A stretch of 64,000 bases of DNA from a virus: IMG/VR virus record IMGVR_UViG_3300014839_000007, one strand, 5' to 3'. Within the stretch, counting starts at the first letter, position 1. Each line of letters begins with the position of its first letter. This document shows, piece after piece, positions 7,609 to 58,069 of the stretch. Under the pieces are notes generated by a model, which did not search any database, was not told where the DNA came from, and saw nothing but the letters and a program-made list of their open reading frames with translations. Position numbers and translations under genes: made by a program.

Positions 7609-8085
7609 TCATATTTTTTCCTCCAACATTTCAAAGAACAATTTAAGATTATTTTCAAATTTTTCAGACAATACGTCTAATGTCTTTTTGTCTGGAGAAA
7701 ACTCTTCTCTACATTTATTGCTTGTCTTTATCCAAATATTTAATATTTCAGTATAAAAATTATTAATTAATTCTTTATCTAATTTAGAGATATTATCCTT
7801 ATGCAATAATTTATGCTTTACTTTTGGTACGCTAACAAGAACATCTGCAGTTTCAAAAACAAATGGATTTTGATAGTTTGTATTTAAGTAAGGACATTTA
7901 TTACATTTAAAAACGGTTCCTTCTACTTTTGTATCTTCTGATTTACATATGGGACATTTTATCTTAGTTTTTCCTATTTTATTAATTTCATTAATTTGCC
8001 AATCTGGATTTTGCTCAGCCAAATTCTTTGTTATTTGATTTAAGGCTTGACCAAGCTCTTTCTTTGTTATCTTTTTTGTTTTCAT
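7609..8085 (-). CDS. Zn-ribbon protein
   Basis: CPICKSEDTKVEGTVFKCNKCPY. Confidence 0.35.
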   Translation of the reverse strand: MKTKKITKKELGQALNQITKNLAEQNPDWQINEINKIGKTKIKCPICKSEDTKVEGTVFKCNKCPYLNTNYQNPFVFETADVLVSVPKVKHKLLHKDNISKLDKELINNFYTEILNIWIKTSNKCREEFSPDKKTLDVLSEKFENNLKLFFEMLEEKI

Positions 8086-8094
8086 TATTTCTCC

Positions 8095-8640
8095 TTATTC
8101 TAATAAAACTGCAACAGCAATTGTTGTTGTCCAAAGCCCACATTTATCCCCTTCACAGGATTGACATATTGACGTTGTCTTAAAAATTTGCCCAGATGCC
8201 TTGTAAACATCTTCCCTTTCTTCCCAGGCGGTATCAGGATTAAATTCAATTCCTAAAGTTGTTGCTAACATTGTCGCAGCTAAATCCTCAGCATAATCCC
8301 CTGCTTTTTTTGCTGTTTCTCCAAAAGTGTGGTGTTCTGACAAATAACCATACTGCTTATCATTTTCTTTTGGGACGGCTATACCAATTGCGGAAGCCAT
8401 TAATCTATTTGGTTCATTGGACTGTATCCTTGCCATTACACAAAAAGTAATCTGTCCTGGACTTAATTTTTTTAATCCTTCTTCCCTAGATATTATTTTA
8501 CAATTTGGAGGTAATATTGACGAAACATATACAAGATTGCACTTTTCAATTCCAGCATCTCTTAGTGCAAGTTCGAACGAACTTAATTTGTCTTTATGAA
8601 TTCCCACCCCTTTTGTTAAGAATAAATTAGTTGGTACCAT
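8095..8640 (-). CDS. pdaD: pyruvoyl-dependent arginine decarboxylase (PvlArgDC)
   Basis: Matches archaeal PdaD in length and the self-cleavage region (VYVSSILPP vs NLIRISSIMPP in M. jannaschii). Size is about 180 aa. Confidence 0.8.
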
Positions 8641-9343
8641 TTTATTATTTCAGTTTTTCTACCTTTTTAAATGTTTCTTATTTTTTGATTTTTGTTGACT
8701 TTTTTAAAGAATTTTAAAAGTTTTAACCTTTTTAACTTCTTTAATTTTTGATTAAAAACTGCTCATTTTTCTTCACTTTTGCGCAGGTTAATAATATAAA
8801 TAATAATATAGATTTTCCAATTTTTAAAAGTCTAAAACAAAAAGGGTGTCTCAGTCTTTTAACTTTTTGGGGTAGAAAAGGTGTTTTTGGCACTTTCAAG
8901 CCTTCAAGATACCCAAATTTGAGCTTTTAGAAAGTTAAAAGTGTTAACCTTTTTAAAGGTTTTCTACCAAATAGAAAAGGTGAAATATGCCTCTACAAGT
9001 CTTAATAAGTATAAATATAATACTTTACTATAATAATAATGTTCACCTTTTTAAAAAACTGGGGAGTACTGGTAGATACAACTGCTATAAAAAATGTAAA
9101 GTTAATACCCCTTACCGAATAACTATCATATAACACATATAAACAATATTGCTTCGAATATAATATATATTCAATTGAATATAATTTTAAATAATGGGAA
9201 AAATTTCCCAGAATATGAAATGGATATGATTTACAGTATATATTATATAAATGTAATTTTGAGAAATTTAATAATGTAATATAAAGTATGTAGTTTAATA
9301 TATAAATGGATGTAATAAAAATGACTAAAATTAGGTCAAAATT
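8641..9343. promoter_or_regulatory. ORF-free, extremely AT-rich region of about 700 bp with repeated AACCTTTTTAA/TTTTAAA elements; candidate origin or promoter region
   Basis: No ORF on either strand. Recurring aaccttttta(a) blocks at about 8724, 8945 and 9043. Lies between the replication module and repeat array A. Confidence 0.3.
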
Positions 9344-9522
9344 TATTCTTCTTCTGTCCAGTCATAAGCAATTATATTCTTGCCGTTCAAACAGCTATTC
9401 ATATGTTCTCCTTCTTCATTAAGGTCTAAAGGAGTTCCGTTTGCCATTGCTCTTTTACAAGCTGCCTTTAACTCTTCAAGCTCCTTCTTTGATAAATTTT
9501 CTAATTCATACATGTGCACCAT
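9344..9522 (-). CDS. small hypothetical protein (59 aa)
   Basis: Hand-translated as MVHMYELENLSKKELEELKAACKRAMANGTPLDLNEEGEH.... It falls below the 60-aa cutoff of the ORF track. Confidence 0.3.
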
Positions 9523-9530
9523 ATCTTCAC

Positions 9531-10245
9531 TTTATGAATATAAATTTCCTTACCACAACCAACTGGAGCCAACTTCATCGGACCTCAATAAAGCCCAACG
9601 AACTAGACTGCAACATAATGCACTGCAGGAATATGAATATAAAATCCTTACCTTAACTTGCTCCCTAAACTTTATCAAACTGGACCTAACAACGCCGTCC
9701 GAATGAATATGAAATCCACACCTTAACCTGAGCCCAATCTACCGTACTCCAATATACTAAACTGTGCTCCAAAAATATTAATATTTCCATACCTCAACAA
9801 AATGCACCGGGCTGGACCCTGCTTTACTGCATTATAACATACTTGAATATAATTCTGTACCTCAACTTACTCCTCCGAGCCTTATCAAACTGGACCTAAC
9901 AACGCCGTCCGAATAAATATAAAATTCCAAACCGTAACTGAGCATACTCTGCTGCACTGCACTTCATTCTACCACAAAGTGACAAACTCTACTCTATAAT
10001 TATAAATTTCCTTACCTTAACTGACCAAAGTATACTCAACAATGCCCAACAGCAAAATACAATACCTAATAAATATAAAAAATCCAAACCTTACCAGACA
10101 CTACCGAAACGGACAATAACAAACTTGAATTAACCACATGAATGTAAATCCTTACCTTACTCTACTGAAATATGCTCCATAATATCTCACTCAAGCATAC
10201 CGTATGAATATTAAACTCCTCAAAAATCAAAGGAGCAATTTTAAA
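9531..10245. repeat. array A: about 10 degenerate tandem units, period roughly 63-92 bp (mostly about 70), consensus TGAATATAAAATCCTTACCTTAAC plus G-depleted spacer
   Basis: Motif starts near 9541, 9633, 9705, 9775, 9845, 9913, 9997, 10067, 10140 and 10203. Spacers are A/C/T-rich with very few G on the plus strand. Stop codons in all frames. Confidence 0.8.
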
Positions 10246-10249
10246 AAAT

Positions 10250-11134
10250 TTATTTACTTGCCTTTGCCTTTATCGGAATTTCCCCCAAAATTAATTGAGG
10301 ATTAATTCCATCTTTTGTTAAGACAATCTTCGTGTTATTTTCCAAAGAAGCTTGAGTAACTTCTAATCTTTTCAATGTTATAGCATTGTCAACGAATGAT
10401 TTATTTATTAAATCAAATGCTTTAGCTTGTCCCTCTGCTGTTAAAATTCTTGCTAATTTATCTCCTTCTGCTCTTAAGATTTGTGCTTGTTTTTCTCCAT
10501 CAGCCTCTTTTATTGCAGCCCTTCTTTTACCATCAGCTTGTGTTTCATTAGCCGTAGCTAAATCCAATGCAGCATCCTTGGTATTTTGTGCCTTAATAAC
10601 ATTATTCATTGTTGCTTGAACATCTGCAGGAGGAATAATTTCTTTAAGTTCTACTTTAAGAACCCTAACACCCCAATCTTTAGTTTCTATAGATAATATG
10701 CTTTGAAGTTTATCATTGAGTATCTTTCTTTCACTATTTACTTCTTTGAAGAGCATAGTACCAATTACATTCCTTGCAGTTGTTCTTGCTAAAGTATCTA
10801 ACTGAGAATATACATCTTTAACTTCATACATTACATTATAAAGATTAGCTTTGTCCTTATCTATCTTAAAGTAAACAACTAAATCAACATTTGCATTAAG
10901 ATTATCTTTTGTAATAATCTCTTGTGGTTCTATATGTGTCATTTGTTCAGTAACATTAATTAATATTAATCTCTGAAATATAGGAAGCACATAATTAAGT
11001 CCTGGTTCTCTTATTCCAGAAAATTTTCCAAGAGTTTCTACAACTCCTCTGCTGTTTGGTCTAATTGTTCTTATTCCAGAAAGAAAATAAATCACCAAAA
11101 TAACTAAAATTGCATATAATATATATTCTATCAT
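10250..11134 (-). CDS. SPFH/band-7 (stomatin/prohibitin-like) membrane protein
   Basis: N-terminal TM helix, then a typical band-7 core (RGVVETLGKFSGIREPGLNYVLPIFQRL...DNLNANVDLVVYFKI) and an Ala/Gln-rich coiled-coil tail. Confidence 0.8.
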   Translation of the reverse strand: MIEYILYAILVILVIYFLSGIRTIRPNSRGVVETLGKFSGIREPGLNYVLPIFQRLILINVTEQMTHIEPQEIITKDNLNANVDLVVYFKIDKDKANLYNVMYEVKDVYSQLDTLARTTARNVIGTMLFKEVNSERKILNDKLQSILSIETKDWGVRVLKVELKEIIPPADVQATMNNVIKAQNTKDAALDLATANETQADGKRRAAIKEADGEKQAQILRAEGDKLARILTAEGQAKAFDLINKSFVDNAITLKRLEVTQASLENNTKIVLTKDGINPQLILGEIPIKAKASK

Positions 11135-25781: not shown

Positions 25782-27362
25782 CACCATATCTTGCTGAAGT
25801 CCGCCTTAAAGTACCGGACAGGAATGGACTGCATTGTACCATCCTTAGTGAATATAATCTGGACCGAACCATCTTTACCGAAGTCCAACTTACGTGACCG
25901 GGCTTCAATGGACTACGCCACATGAATATAGTTATGGTGCGATTTATTAAATTAAGTTAACGTTAATTGGGGTAGGTGTAGTAAGGATTTCATAATAATT
26001 ATTTTACAATTTTCCTACCTTCAACCTTACCCTTCTTTTTTAATTCTTCATTTTGGTTTTTTATTCTACCAATACAATAAAAACAAACGTAACCAAATAA
26101 ACATTCGTATATAGTATAGCTGTCTGCATCAAACCATTTACCACAAATGCAGCATTGTTCTTTACAAAAAACATTATTCTTTAATCTGTATATTTTTAAA
26201 TTCATTTTCTACACCTTAGCATACTTCGCTCCGACTTACTTTAAGGCACTTCATTGCACCTCTCTAGACTTCTAACTATGAAAATAACTTTTTTGACCTA
26301 TCCGAATTTAAAAAATTTATTAATCCTCTTCTTCATCAATTATGATTTCATCTTCATCAACATCTACATCCATCATATCATCTATTTCTTCATCATCTTT
26401 TTCTTTTAATTTTTCTTTTTCCATTTTTCCTCCTTTCACTTTTCTTCTACTAAAAAATAATGCCAAACTAACCTTTCCTTTTTATCAGCGATTGATAGTT
26501 TAGATTTTACATCGTGTTTCCAAGTAGTAACTTCTTCAACCAATGTAGTCAAATAAATTGCTCCTTTTGGTATTTCCATTCCTGTTCCATACTTATATAC
26601 TTTTTTCATTTAATTCCTCCTTTATAAAATTTTCCTAACCATACCTTAACTTAATACACCCCACTGCACTCCACTTCTCTTTATCAAACTCCACTGAAAC
26701 ACATTACACTGAGCCTGACTTTATGAATATGAAAATCCTTGCCTTAACTCACAATACCTAAACCACATACCAACTCAACTTACTCAACCTTGAATATAAT
26801 TCCAAACCCCACCATAACAAACTCCAATTAAGTATACCTTACAAGACCCAATCAGACTAGAATGCAACACACTAGAACATTATTTTTTGAATATGAAAAT
26901 CCTTACTGCACCTTACCTTTCACCTTATCCCAATGTAACGTAGCTTACTGCTTCTTACCAAAATGGAGCATACCAAATCGGACTATACAGCACTCCGACA
27001 AATATGAATATAAATAAATTCCGCACCTTAACATAACCCATCACACAACATCACACTATACTCAACCCCAAACTACCCTTAACTATAAATATAAATCCTT
27101 ACCTTATCCCATATAAACTTGACCGGACATTACTCCGCCTTACTTAACCAAGCCTAAATAAATATAAATTCCGCACCATATCTTACAGCATTTTGCTTTA
27201 CTCTACCAGACTAAACTGGACTCCGTGAATATAAAATCCTTACCTCAACATTCCCTACTTACCTTACTGGGCTGGAACCCACTTTGAATATAATTCCAAA
27301 CCTCACTTAACCTTATCTTACCCTATTGCAACTCACAAAATAATACCATTCCTAAATATAAA
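25782..27362. repeat. array B: degenerate roughly 70-bp unit array interrupted by three tiny minus-strand ORFs
   Basis: Motif starts near 25845 and 25918, then 26724, 26791, 26888, 27005, 27083, 27155, 27226, 27286 and 27352. Same consensus and G-depleted spacers as array A. Confidence 0.75.
25999..26205 (-). CDS. small Zn-finger protein embedded in array B
   Basis: CCICGKW...CFYC. Confidence 0.35.
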   Translation of the reverse strand: MNLKIYRLKNNVFCKEQCCICGKWFDADSYTIYECLFGYVCFYCIGRIKNQNEELKKKGKVEGRKIVK

Positions 27363-27508: not shown

Positions 27509-28138
27509 TTACGCTGTAGCTACAGTGAACATTCCGTATTGACCTCCGTGTTGAGGTGTCCACGAACCAACTCCAATGTGAAATCCAGCTAGCTTTGCTA
27601 ACTCAATTATCTGTACTGGGGTTATTTGCTGTTCATTGTACCTAATTGTTAAGACACAACTCCATTCTTGAAACTCTGGTCTCCATATTTCTCTTGGGGC
27701 TCTATTTATACCACTATCCCTGCCCATAGCTTTGTTGGTTACTTGTTTCTTATATTTTATAGGTGCTAATTCCCCCAAAATAAAGAAAGAACCCTTAGCT
27801 TTCTTTTTATCCAGACCATCCAAATATGGTGCTGCTTCTACCATAGCTTTCTTAAATCCACTAGTTGGAAAACACACTTCACCCTTTGAGTTTTTGTGTA
27901 TCTTTTCCTTAACTTCGTTTTCTAAGTCTCTATTCTTGTTTTTCTCTTTTCCTTTACCTTCAACCATATTCTTAAGTTGTTCTCTAATTCTATCACTCAT
28001 TTTTTCTTGCAACAAAGATGTTTCTCCATTAACTTTTAATGACATCGTAGCAATTTTAATTGGAGTAATAGTTACCTGAACTTTCTTATTAGGTGTCTTT
28101 TCAACTTCAACTTTCTTCGCCTTATCTTCTTTTATCAT
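27509..28138 (-). CDS. conserved hypothetical protein (GSWTPQHGGQYG family), intact paralog
   Basis: 209 aa. C-terminal GFHIGVGSWTPQHGGQYG is shared with 28781..29382. A repeat unit lies immediately upstream. Confidence 0.5.
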   Translation of the reverse strand: MIKEDKAKKVEVEKTPNKKVQVTITPIKIATMSLKVNGETSLLQEKMSDRIREQLKNMVEGKGKEKNKNRDLENEVKEKIHKNSKGEVCFPTSGFKKAMVEAAPYLDGLDKKKAKGSFFILGELAPIKYKKQVTNKAMGRDSGINRAPREIWRPEFQEWSCVLTIRYNEQQITPVQIIELAKLAGFHIGVGSWTPQHGGQYGMFTVATA

Positions 28139-28780: not shown

Positions 28781-29382
28781 TTATTTAACTTTAAATTTAC
28801 CATATTGACCTCCGTGTTGAGGTGTCCACGAACCAACTCCAATGTGAAATCCAGCTAGATTTGCCAATTCAATTAAATCTTTTTCTGTTATTCTTTGAGA
28901 ATTATATTTAATTGTTAGAATACAATTCCAATTTTCAAATGAGGGGTATCGCATAAGCCTTTTTGTTTTTTCTCTGCCAAAATTGATGCCAAAAAATCTA
29001 ATTGTACTTTGTTTCTTATATTTAATAGGAACTAAGTCACCTATAATAAAGAAACCTCCCTTTGTGTCACCCTTACTTAAATGTGAATGATATGGACTTG
29101 CTTCTACCATAGCTTTCTTAAATCCACTAGTTGGAAAACACACTTCACCTTTAGCATTTCGATGTATCATTTCATCCACTCTTTTTTGTAATTCTTCTTC
29201 TTCATCATAATCCTTTAACGTTTTACTCTTCCCTTCAACCATATTCTTAAGTGTTCTCTAATCCTATCACTCATCTTTCCCATAATTAAAGGACTTGTTC
29301 CTTTAATATTTAATTTCATTGTAGCAATCTTAATCGGAGTAATAGTTACATTTACTCTTTTTTTTATGTTTTGAAAATTCAT
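28781..29382 (-). pseudogene. frameshifted paralog of 27509..28138 (1-nt deletion near 29250)
   Basis: Track ORF 28781..29242 aligns to residues about 60-209 of the intact copy. The N-terminal 47 aa (MNFQNIKKRVNVTITPIKIATMKLNIKGTSPLIMGKMSDRIREHL) are encoded in another frame at 29243..29382. The plus strand has aagtgttctc here versus aagttgttctc in copy 1. Confidence 0.5.
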
Positions 29383-31045: not shown

Positions 31046-31648
31046 TTATATTTTAGATAATAACACAATTTTATTAATAACACCTTGAAAATCTTTCTTT
31101 ATCTTTCTTCTTGGAATTTTTTTCATTTCAAAAAGATGTTTAATATATCCAATATATTCATTTGTAGCAAATTCATAAGACAATTCTTTGTTATAATTAC
31201 CAGGCTTTATATCGCCTCTTTCCCATATTTTAACATAAGAATAAAAGCTCTCTTTTTTTCTAAATATAAATTTATTTTTAAGAACTTCTGCATTTCCCTT
31301 ATCTTTATATCTCTCATCTGGAGAAGTATATTCTGAGCAAACAGCAATTATATGATTTATAGAATAACAATCATTATCTGTTTGGGGATTAAAATATCTT
31401 ATTTCAAAGTTAAATCTTTCCTTCTCTTTTGAAGAGTGTGATTCATAAGCATCGATTGTTAATATTAATGTATTACAATCATATACTGAAATTGTAAAAG
31501 TCGTATAATTTCTCCAAGCTTCATCTTTTATATCTGTTACCTTAAAATCAAAGTCTAAAAACTTATAGTCTTTTTTATTTAACCAAGCCTTACTTATAGT
31601 TAAAGATTTTAATTGACTTAGACGTCCCATTCTATTTCTTGCACTCAT
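31046..31648 (-). CDS. hypothetical protein (200 aa)
   Basis: ORF preceded by a motif copy (GGTATGGGATTTTATATTCA) about 20 nt upstream of an AGAGGA Shine-Dalgarno. Confidence 0.35.
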   Translation of the reverse strand: MSARNRMGRLSQLKSLTISKAWLNKKDYKFLDFDFKVTDIKDEAWRNYTTFTISVYDCNTLILTIDAYESHSSKEKERFNFEIRYFNPQTDNDCYSINHIIAVCSEYTSPDERYKDKGNAEVLKNKFIFRKKESFYSYVKIWERGDIKPGNYNKELSYEFATNEYIGYIKHLFEMKKIPRRKIKKDFQGVINKIVLLSKI

Positions 31649-31659
31649 ATTTTTTCCTC

Positions 31660-31985
31660 TTTTTGAATATAAAATCCCATACCATAACTGAATGGACCGT
31701 GCATCACCCTACCTGAGTAAATCGCACTGTATCATACACTACTCCATGAATATAATCCTTACCACAACAAATTAAACTCCACGCCATCGTACTCCACCCA
31801 ACTGCAATGGAACTCAACTATAATTAATGAATATGAAATCCTTACCTTAACCTTAACATAGCGGAAGTTACCACACTGGAATACACTCCAATATGACTAT
31901 GAATATAATCCATACCTTAACGGACCGGGGCTTACTCCGCCTGACTCAACGGCAACTTACTACACTATATTGCACCGGAATAAAT
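31660..31985. repeat. array C: 5 units of the same roughly 70-80-bp repeat
   Basis: Motif starts near 31664, 31747, 31828, 31899 and 31977. Confidence 0.7.
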
Positions 31986-36723: not shown

Positions 36724-37200
36724 TTAATCTAATTTATGTTCTATTTTATTTACATACTGATAAATTCCACAAATACCTGTGTATTCTGTTTTATCATAAT
36801 CTACAATTTTATTCAAATTCTCCGTAGATAGATATTTCTTAAATCTCTCTTTATACACAAAGCTAACTCCTATGTAAATCCTATCATTAATTTTTTTAAG
36901 ATATTCATTAAGTCTTTTGAACCATTCTATAATACATCCTTCACGAACTCTCTCAAATCTTCTCTGAGATTGTCCACCCTGCCTTTGCTTATTAGGTATA
37001 GTAGAATGAATATCAAAAATCTTTTCTATTCCGCCATCAGTAAAAACATTCGCACAATAAGCTTCTTGTAAATCCAAGACCAATATTGTGTATTTTATTT
37101 TTCTGTCGGTATCTAACTTCAATAGTTCTTTTCCACAATGGTATTTCTTTTCTTTTCTCTCGTAGGGAACTATTGTTAAATCATCGTCATCCCAATACAT
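36724..37200 (-). CDS. stand-alone release-factor aRF1/eRF1 domain-2-like protein with GGQ motif
   Basis: IPNKQRQGGQSQRRFERVREGCIIEWFKRLNE aligns to the aRF1/eRF1 GGQ loop and helix (eRF1: [28 protein letters not shown]). Flanking ILVLDLQEAY matches eRF1 FIVIDGSGALF. Only about 158 aa, so no N or C domains. Confidence 0.6.
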   Translation of the reverse strand: MYWDDDDLTIVPYERKEKKYHCGKELLKLDTDRKIKYTILVLDLQEAYCANVFTDGGIEKIFDIHSTIPNKQRQGGQSQRRFERVREGCIIEWFKRLNEYLKKINDRIYIGVSFVYKERFKKYLSTENLNKIVDYDKTEYTGICGIYQYVNKIEHKLD

Positions 37201-57631: not shown

Positions 57632-58069
57632 CTATTCTTTCTTATTTTTATCATTTTTACCTTCTTTTGCTTTACCAAATAACTTCATCGTTTCAAATAT
57701 CCAAAACTGGTCTTCTGTTAATACCCCTGTAGCAAGAGCAGTTGGTGTACCCATACTTACTTCAGTTATACCTTCGTCAATATAAAGATGGTGTGGAATT
57801 TGCCATTGTTTTAAGTATTCAGCAATTCCAAATAACTCTAAACTATTCTTACATTGTAAAACAATAACACACATTCCATTATCTCTCCATTTTTCTTTTA
57901 GTTCTTCAAAATATCTATTACCTCTATTTCCATTTCTGATATAAAGTCCCTCATTTTGTCTTTCAAGAGCCATAAATGTTGCGTGTGCTGTTTGACTTGC
58001 AATTTTTCCTGCTGACATCTTTGGCAGTTTAGGAACTATTACAAATTGTTTATACTTTATTTCTATCAT
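57632..58069 (-). CDS. pth2: peptidyl-tRNA hydrolase, PTH2 (archaeal/eukaryal type)
   Basis: VIVPKLPKMSAGKIASQTAHA, VIVLQCKNSLEL and YIDEGITEVSMGTPTALATGV align with PTH2 conserved blocks (VVRxDLxMxxGKxxAQxxHA; IxDAGxTQxxxGxxTxLAIGP). Confidence 0.7.
   Translation of the reverse strand: MIEIKYKQFVIVPKLPKMSAGKIASQTAHATFMALERQNEGLYIRNGNRGNRYFEELKEKWRDNGMCVIVLQCKNSLELFGIAEYLKQWQIPHHLYIDEGITEVSMGTPTALATGVLTEDQFWIFETMKLFGKAKEGKNDKNKKE

Follow-up and report, generated by a model that had tools for sequence, protein, structure and literature searches.

We analysed a stretch of DNA of 64,000 nucleotides from a virus record (IMG/VR, IMGVR_UViG_3300014839_000007), hereafter the window, which carries on its minus strand a gene predicted to encode a pyruvoyl-dependent arginine decarboxylase (ADC). 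The gene is referred to below as pdaD and its product as PdaD, and the carrier is read as a mobile element of an archaeon, probably a large virus. The gene and the predicted parts of its product are as follows.

8095..8640, minus strand: pdaD, pyruvoyl-dependent arginine decarboxylase proenzyme, ATG start, 181 aa
8640-8521 (nt), minus strand: predicted beta chain of PdaD, residues 1-40
Residues 41-181: predicted alpha chain of PdaD, its first residue being the pyruvoyl group made from Ser41
8518..8523, minus strand: codons TCG TCA of Ser40-Ser41, the predicted serinolysis (self-cleavage) site, within VYVSSILPP (residues 37-45)

Assignment, origin and maintenance of pdaD

The Pfam search showed that PF01862 (PvlArgDC) covers PdaD end to end, with an E value of 7e-61, a score of 205.2 bits against a cut-off of 22.7 bits, and profile positions 1-160 of 161 aligned. 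In the NCBIfam search, TIGR00286 scored 133.4 bits (cut-off 106.95). A sequence search of the PDB returned only the M. jannaschii enzyme (1n2m, 2qqd), weakly, at 35 bits. An AlphaFold model of PdaD, built on an alignment of 20 homologues, reached a predicted local distance difference test score (pLDDT) of 89.4 and a predicted template modelling score (pTM) of 0.85, and Foldseek matched it to the M. jannaschii proenzyme 1n2m/2qqd over 179 columns (E 4e-20; TM score 0.77 for the query and 0.90 for the target).

When PdaD was aligned with M. jannaschii PvlArgDC, VYVSSILPP paired with ISSIMPP, and Ser40-Ser41, Asn35 and Glu102 corresponded to Ser52-Ser53, Asn47 and Glu109, respectively. The PDB mutants S53A, N47A and E109Q of the M. 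jannaschii enzyme hit precisely the residues equivalent to those of PdaD, and the Glu109 carboxylate is said to facilitate cleavage in this family (PMC2720952). Given the mutants N47A and E109Q together with that report, the positions of Asn35 and Glu102 are taken to be important. Among 20 diverse homologues, with identity down to 40%, N35 is invariant, while S40, S41, P44, P45 and E102 are nearly invariant.

PdaD fits the PvlArgDC family in every feature that can be tested in silico, and its assignment to this family is as firm as sequence and predicted structure allow. The initial annotation, made from the letters of the DNA, had called the gene a PdaD-type arginine decarboxylase with a self-processing Ser-Ser site in VYVSSILPP; PF01862, NF009064, TIGR00286, the fold and the alignment all agree with it, the PvlArgDC profile matching over the full length at 205 bits and the Ser-Ser cleavage context being present and nearly invariant in the 20 homologues. 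A working enzyme is predicted, one that would process itself and decarboxylate L-arginine, and to this the ratio of nonsynonymous to synonymous substitution rates (dN/dS) of 0.087 given below adds support of an indirect kind only.

To place pdaD among its relatives, 5.8 billion proteins were searched, which returned 8000 homologues. The best 120 were 78-87% identical to PdaD, and the named hits among them came nearly all from metagenome-assembled genomes of Nanoarchaeota and Pacearchaeota (DPANN), with a few from contigs binned as bacterial. The three closest homologues with usable context (85-87% identical), together with P0015, lie in ordinary cellular neighbourhoods with genes on mixed strands. 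P0031, on a 231-kb Pacearchaeota contig, adjoins a diphthine synthase gene (TP_methylase) and has KsgA and an MMPL transporter nearby; P0002 also lies near diphthine synthase, P0003 near S-adenosylmethionine synthetase, ABCE1 and ArgRS, and P0015 (84% identical) near NUDIX, thymidylate synthase and Sua5. Among the GTDB representatives, the top matches were from Nanoarchaeota, Pacearchaeota and Woesearchaeota (up to 87%), the homologues of Methanoregula, Nitrospirota and Spirochaetota were 71-73% identical, and none of 80 GTDB loci had any other gene of the element beside pdaD.

In neighbour-joining trees, the PdaD of the element falls within the DPANN sequences, to which it has a median identity of 82%, equal to the all-against-all median. 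Its terminal branch is only moderately long (0.060 compared with a median of 0.035). Since bootstrap values within this shallow, highly conserved DPANN clade are 36-65%, we limit the claim to nesting in the DPANN clade and name no specific donor. The host-like loci have a GC content of 27-32%, and the element has 29%. Judged by its sequence relatives, pdaD stems from the chromosome of a DPANN archaeon of the Pacearchaeota/Nanoarchaeota type, from which the element captured it, and an archaeon of this type is also the likely host. The gene thereby gives a link to Pacearchaeota/Nanoarchaeota for an element that offers no CRISPR or tRNA clue to its host.

The horizontal acquisition from a cellular lineage that the initial annotation had raised is borne out by this nesting among cellular DPANN genes. 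Its view that the family is typical of methanogenic and other archaea and so supports the host assignment did not hold, as the family is not methanogen-specific and the nearest relatives are DPANN genes (up to 87%); a methanogen host was rejected, the Methanoregula homologues reaching 71-73% compared with up to 87% for DPANN. It had also held that a phylogeny within a cellular genome context would speak against a mobile-element gene. PdaD does nest among cellular genes, yet the genes around it belong to the element, and pdaD is also retained in a diverged relative of that element.

As a separate observation on GTDB loci (among them L042, L052, L053, L063 and L069), PvlArgDC of the NF009064 type is unusually conserved across domains, with Methanoregula, Nitrospirota, Spirochaetota and DPANN sharing 71-87%. 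Several DPANN-like copies occur on contigs binned as Pirellulales, Kuenenbacteria or Omnitrophota, which suggests either mis-binning or recent inter-domain transfer.

The relative of the element just mentioned is L037, a 3.2-kb contig (SRR25490532) that encodes P0007, the nearest sequence to the element's PdaD in the tree. L037 is a diverged relative of the element and carries, in order, a homologous upstream non-coding region (~74% nucleotide identity in an alignment that includes pdaD), pdaD (87% amino-acid identity), two unrelated small open reading frames (ORFs), a Zn-finger gene (72%) and an ATPase gene (79%). Between the element and L037, pdaD has a dN of 0.083, a dS of 0.95 and a dN/dS of 0.087, which lies inside the range between cellular PdaD orthologues (0.06-0.12); the ATPase gene gives 0.13. 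These values show that pdaD is kept under purifying selection in the lineage of the element. With 36% GC, pdaD is the highest among the window genes of at least 100 aa, which is due to its constrained amino-acid composition, and its third-position GC content (23%) agrees with the element mean of 20 +/- 4.5%. Five assemblies with the exact protein are 100% identical in DNA (ENA, JGI and Logan) and share the same joins, and this agreement across the ENA, JGI and Logan assemblies argues against a chimera.

Surroundings of pdaD and the carrier element

The features next to pdaD are given below.

8660..8671, minus strand: TATA-like box TTTAAAAAGGTA, ending 23 nt upstream of the pdaD ATG
8641..9342 (702 bp): AT-rich non-coding region upstream of pdaD, 22.9% GC compared with 29.1% for the window, no credible ORF
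9523..10249, minus strand: array of the promoter-like motif AAGGTAAGGAWTTTATATTCAT, ~10 copies at a spacing of 70-85 nt, no ORFs between them
7609..8085, minus strand: Zn-ribbon (Zn-finger) protein, 158 aa, 72% identical in L037
6370..7359, minus strand: P-loop (AAA+/STAND-like) ATPase, 329 aa, weak nSTAND and weak RuvB-like matches, 79% identical in L037
3792..5819, minus strand: MCM replicative helicase, 675 aa, PF00493 at 237 bits plus MCM_OB and lid domains

The 36 nt ahead of the start of pdaD read CATTTAAAAAGGTAGAAAAACTGAAATAATAAA-ATG, and no Shine-Dalgarno sequence was found between the TATA-like box and the ATG. The box may be an archaeal promoter from which an mRNA with a short leader, or with none, is transcribed. 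Boxes resembling ACCTTTTTAA are present in 4 copies in 8660-9054; as an element-wide motif ACCTTTTTAA was rejected, being not enriched (12 matches compared with 10.7 expected). The scan for bacterial promoters and terminators was uninformative for an archaeal element. The AT-rich region 8641..9342 is a candidate regulatory or origin region, and an Rfam search of 8400-10400, including the non-coding stretch before pdaD, found no match. A 59-aa ORF at 9343-9522 separates this region from the second non-coding stretch at 9523-10249 (~730 bp), which is not AT-rich (36% GC) and whose last AAGGTAAGGAWTTTATATTCAT copy may drive the 59-aa ORF.

On the other side of pdaD, the ATG of the Zn-ribbon gene, preceded by AAGGAG, lies 9 nt past the pdaD stop codon, so close that the two genes are probably co-transcribed. 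The genes from the Zn-finger gene through MCM abut or overlap. MCM itself matches phrog_10371 (E 6e-136) and shares 24-30% identity with the MCM proteins that archaeal tailed viruses encode. From this arrangement, pdaD looks like the first cistron of a replication operon (Zn-finger, ATPase, MCM). The placement of pdaD between a replication module and an AT-rich non-coding region, as first described, is confirmed, with Zn-finger, ATPase and MCM genes downstream and 702 bp at 22.9% GC upstream.

The window lies in the ENA contig ERZ27248448:k141_2156509 (116,319 bp), of which ~111.6 of 116.3 kb was read by walking outward from the window. The window holds 170 non-overlapping minus-strand ORFs with a coding density of 91%, a mean of ~114 aa and 2.7 genes per kb, and it has 29% GC and a GC skew that is negative throughout. 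The unidirectional array to which these ORFs belong spans ~15.4 to at least 113.4 kb of the contig (~98 kb) and contains ~270 genes, mostly <120 aa. At ~15.4 kb of the contig, coding strand and GC skew flip together, and a short opposite-strand arm of ~9 kb follows, which was read from the JGI contig L121 (100% identical over 11.9 kb).

Genes of the window encode MCM, an ATP-dependent ligase, ParB-type nucleases, a radical-SAM protein (phrog_13321), a pair formed by a DUF2201/VWA protein (phrog_1314) and a MoxR-like ATPase (phrog_1297), HNH endonucleases, a Band-7 protein, a glycosyltransferase, PTH2 and an eRF1-domain-2 protein. In the PHROG search, ~10 phage protein families of no assigned function were also present in the window. 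Outside it, there are a second ligase, a uracil-DNA glycosylase, a dCTP deaminase, a LAGLIDADG endonuclease, Fic and more ORFans, and the short arm carries ORFans, a di-adenylate cyclase, RusA and a 619-aa P-loop protein with an intein. Neither tRNA genes nor ribosomal genes were found in any part of the element read (window and flanks). Three of these genes are considered further below.

L121 5910-7769 (k141_2156509 ~7.8-9.6 kb, outside the window), plus strand: P-loop protein, 619 aa, with a ~170-aa intein inside Walker A
36724-37200, minus strand: stand-alone eRF1-domain-2-like protein, 158 aa, GGQ motif, PF03464 E 4.5e-10
57632-58069, minus strand: PTH2 peptidyl-tRNA hydrolase, 145 aa

The intein junctions in the P-loop protein read ...HIGVTAM|C...LCGN|TGKGKG..., and the intein has weak matches to PDB 6zgq and to several intein-bearing PHROG families. 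When the intein was removed in silico, the match of this protein to the terminase-large-subunit family phrog_2666 improved from an E value of 8e-4 to 1e-4, at 22 bits, and no match to the intein-removed protein was found in the PDB or among GenBank phages. A RusA resolvase gene lies 600 bp downstream of the P-loop gene. The eRF1-domain-2-like protein also weakly matches the VLRF1 release-factor family, and together with PTH2 it places two ribosome-rescue or peptidyl-tRNA recycling functions on one mobile element.

Use of the agmatine and nature of the carrier

The PdaD of the element shares family, fold, Ser-Ser site and the Asn and Glu residues with cellular PdaD/PvlArgDC (EC 4.1.1.19; MJ0316, TK0149, HVO_1958 and the Pacearchaeota/Nanoarchaeota orthologues). 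Compared with the cellular DPANN copies, it is 85-87% identical and under purifying selection of equal strength, but its gene is not surrounded by cellular genes and instead comes first in a replication operon of a mobile, virus-like element. The chlamydial AaxB of the AaxABC system also belongs to the PvlArgDC family and forms its pyruvoyl group by self-cleavage at a Ser (PMC2720952), although it has a dedicated antiporter and porin encoded beside it and the element has neither.

Viruses of bacteria and eukaryotes carry ADCs of other folds that feed polyamine synthesis (PMC9992855). Chlorovirus PBCV-1, with a pyridoxal-phosphate-dependent ADC derived from ornithine decarboxylase (ODC), and pelagiphages, with a pyruvoyl ADC derived from S-adenosylmethionine decarboxylase (AdoMetDC/SpeD), likewise convert arginine to agmatine (PMC9992855). 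These ADCs were taken from cellular metabolism and are thought to raise the polyamine supply during infection, and those of pelagiphages are pyruvoyl-dependent, as is the PdaD of the element. PdaD differs from them in belonging to the non-homologous PF01862, not to the SpeD or alanine-racemase fold, in its likely DPANN host and in having no downstream pathway genes. A systematic survey reports only ODC-derived and SpeD-derived viral ADCs (Li et al. 2023, PMC9992855). The statement in the initial annotation that polyamine genes are unusual cargo for viruses was thus too broad, such genes being known in viruses generally (PMC9992855); what is new here is the PvlArgDC family and the archaeal setting. 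In the searchable literature, no archaeal and no PdaD-type example of a virus-borne polyamine enzyme was found, and the searchable archaeal and DPANN virus literature contains no mention of PvlArgDC, a prior description in Wu et al. 2024 not being excluded. No tblastn match to PvlArgDC was obtained in 50,697 GenBank phage and archaeal-virus records.

PvlArgDC is present on 15 IMG/VR contigs (L022-L036; e.g. 3300028840_004475 and 3300037484_000731) of 14-269 kb and 30-57% GC, for which no description of the PdaD-type genes was found in the searchable literature. These homologues are 41-66% identical to the PdaD of the element, and the contigs share no other gene with it. On L027 and L030 the neighbours of the gene are a 5'-3' exonuclease and a peptidoglycan endolysin, the latter an indication of bacterial hosts; nearby genes encode endonuclease VII and a scaffold protein on L035, a 3'-phosphoadenosine-5'-phosphosulfate (PAPS) reductase on L033 and a tail protein on L029. 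All ten IMG/VR sequences included in the neighbour-joining tree cluster together, separate from those of cells and of the element (86% bootstrap). Given this distinct group, the low identity and the absence of shared genes, the capture in these contigs was separate from that of the element, and since phage contigs of bacteria also carry PvlArgDC, viral capture of the gene needs no archaea-specific reason. On these sequences, PdaD-type ADCs seem to recur as auxiliary genes of phages.

Archaea cannot do without agmatine, which is the precursor of agmatidine in tRNA-Ile2 and probably serves aIF5A modification; it is also the main polyamine of some archaeal lineages, and both T. kodakarensis and H. 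volcanii require their PdaD-type gene (PMC5178350). We propose, with a probability of about 0.6, that the captured and maintained pdaD gives a functioning ADC that raises agmatine in the host while the element replicates, chiefly as a polycation or polyamine precursor and secondarily for translation. As the first gene of a transcription unit running into replication genes, pdaD would be expressed together with them, when the element replicates its DNA, and the agmatine supply of a metabolically poor host cell would rise during infection. Replication and condensation of a large AT-rich genome would then draw on agmatine, either as a polycation or by way of polyamines that the host makes from it, and secondarily it could keep up the agmatine-dependent steps of archaeal translation. 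We infer the enzymatic activity, the physiological use of agmatine, the promoter, the co-transcription and the virus nature of the element.

Several points weigh against this proposal. PdaD is only ~23% identical to the M. jannaschii enzyme, its NF009064 score in the NCBIfam search (207 bits) equals the cut-off of 207 exactly, and we know of no assayed member of the DPANN/bacterial PvlArgDC subfamily. The five identical assemblies are not independent populations, L037 being the only independent witness. No agmatine-using enzyme (agmatinase, agmatine deiminase, aminopropyltransferase, TiaS, deoxyhypusine synthase or antiporter) was found in the readable element, so the agmatine must feed host processes. 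As to packaging, no capsid, portal or tail gene was recognised in the ~111.6 of 116.3 kb, and the sole packaging candidate is the 619-aa P-loop protein with its weak 22-bit terminase match; a DNA-packaging role for agmatine therefore lacks the backing of a demonstrated capsid. The partners of known polyamine clusters (agmatinase, agmatine iminohydrolase (AIH) with N-carbamoylputrescine amidohydrolase (NCPAH), aminopropyltransferase) had no Pfam or PHROG match in the window or flanks, and no transporter that could serve as an arginine:agmatine antiporter or porin was found near pdaD or elsewhere in the window.

An alternative use of the product lies in translation. In the window genes, 46% of Ile codons and 4.0% of codons overall are AUA, which archaea read with the help of agmatidine, and it is through agmatidine that agmatine is essential to them (PMC5178350). 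The product might therefore serve mainly the formation by TiaS of agmatidine (agm2C34) in tRNA-Ile2, and maybe aIF5A deoxyhypusination, as part of a kit with PTH2 and the eRF1-domain-2 GGQ protein on the same element. That gene-poor DPANN genomes keep pdaD so highly conserved would also fit an essential role. However, no tRNA gene, and hence no tRNA-Ile(CAU), and no TiaS was found in the readable element; host tRNA is already modified at the start of infection, and only catalytic agmatine would be needed; pdaD heads a replication module, not a translation module; and PvlArgDC occurs on contigs of bacterial phages, whose hosts do not use agmatidine. We regard this use as unlikely to be the main one and favour a general rise in agmatine timed with replication over a reading centred on agmatidine. 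Somewhat less likely again is its strongest form, a giant DPANN virus (>110 kb) with pdaD in a translation-maintenance kit, in which viral agmatine keeps tRNA-Ile2 agmatidinylated, and perhaps aIF5A modified, for a genome with 4% AUA codons once host gene expression has collapsed. If true, PTH2 and the GGQ release-factor domain would rescue stalled ribosomes, and this would be the first virus to supply the precursor of an essential tRNA anticodon modification. That PdaD serves arginine:agmatine exchange for acid resistance or energy, or has lost or changed its activity as a decoy or neofunctionalised decarboxylase, appears very improbable. AaxB is a PvlArgDC-family enzyme in such an exchange (PMC2720952), and pyruvoyl decarboxylases of another fold change substrate (PMC10407285), but the element has no antiporter, porin or transporter gene, the processing and catalytic residues are intact with a dN/dS of 0.087 compared with 0.06-0.12 in cells, and PdaD is typical of the cellular clade (median identity 82%).

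The nature of the carrier has to be weighed in the same way. Its tiny, densely packed genes, homing endonucleases, phage protein families and RusA, together with a terminase-like ATPase that bears an intein, lead us to read it as a probable large (>110 kb) virus among the mobile elements of archaea. Of the original description as a virus-like element carrying pdaD, the mobile element next to a replication module stood, while the label of virus goes no further than probable, with no capsid or portal gene found in the nearly complete contig that was read and a weak terminase match. A large plasmid or a Borg-like DPANN extrachromosomal element, on which pdaD would be cargo that duplicates an essential gene and thereby benefits the host cell or makes it addicted, is a serious but less probable candidate. 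It would explain ~111.6 of 116.3 kb without a capsid, portal or tail gene, and the IMG/VR searches, with PdaD, MCM, the phrog_1297 ATPase and an alignment of the 329-aa ATPase as queries, found no close relatives of the element. The ParB-like genes and the long unidirectional arrays with a switch of strand and GC skew also suit it; we take these arrays to resemble Borg replichores. Against it stand the many phage-family matches, the HNH and LAGLIDADG homing endonucleases, RusA and the intein-bearing P-loop protein with its weak terminase match, as well as the DUF2201 and MoxR-like pair, which is common in phages, and a density of 2.7 genes per kb, typical of viruses. Moreover, profile searches often miss the structural proteins of new archaeal viruses, and the contig may be incomplete. 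We give hardly any credit to a host chromosomal pdaD on an assembly chimera or chromosomal island. PdaD is indeed 85-87% identical to chromosomal DPANN genes, and the element and host-like contigs are alike in GC, but pdaD lies ~32 kb inside a unidirectional array with element genes on both sides, the ENA, JGI and Logan assemblies agree on the joins, L037 keeps the order of pdaD, Zn-finger and ATPase with a homologous upstream region, and housekeeping genes were not found nearby.

If pdaD is active, these DPANN cells would be limited by their agmatine supply to a degree that justifies ~550 bp of element genome, and the likely host has almost no biosynthetic capacity. A small, easily expressed protein would also give an experimental handle on an otherwise opaque element, ~90% of whose genes have no recognisable function. 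The carrier is arguably more unusual than pdaD: it has ~300 tiny unidirectional genes and arrays of promoter-like repeats, and at more than 110 kb it is far larger than described DPANN viruses, the complete genomes of which were ~41 kb in a groundwater survey (PMC11310336).

Promoter-like arrays and other genes of the element

The motif AAGGTAAGGAWTTTATATTCAT gave 20 hits with a position weight matrix on the minus strand and 0 on the plus strand. Its arrays lie at 9523-10249, 26650-27330 and 31685-31918 on the minus strand, with 4-10 copies each, 70-85 nt apart and free of ORFs between copies. Single copies resembling an archaeal promoter with B recognition element (BRE) and TATA box are located just upstream of the ORFs 9343-9522, 27509-28138 and 31046-31648. 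The DNA separating the copies is rich in G+T, and one pair of these spacers shares 79% identity over 80 nt. The arrays could give rise to short promoter-driven RNAs, or could act as transcription-factor sinks or origin iterons.

Two paralogues of phrog_4652 (E 5e-30) are encoded on the minus strand at 27509-28138 (209 aa) and 28781-29242 (153 aa). The former has a copy of the promoter-like motif just upstream and is located just downstream of the second motif array, a placement that suggests strong expression. In addition, the di-adenylate cyclase of the short arm (DAC domain PF02457, E 5e-18), located at L019 19017-19607 (minus strand), which is the same as L121 9414-10004 (plus strand), points to synthesis of cyclic di-AMP by an archaeal mobile element.

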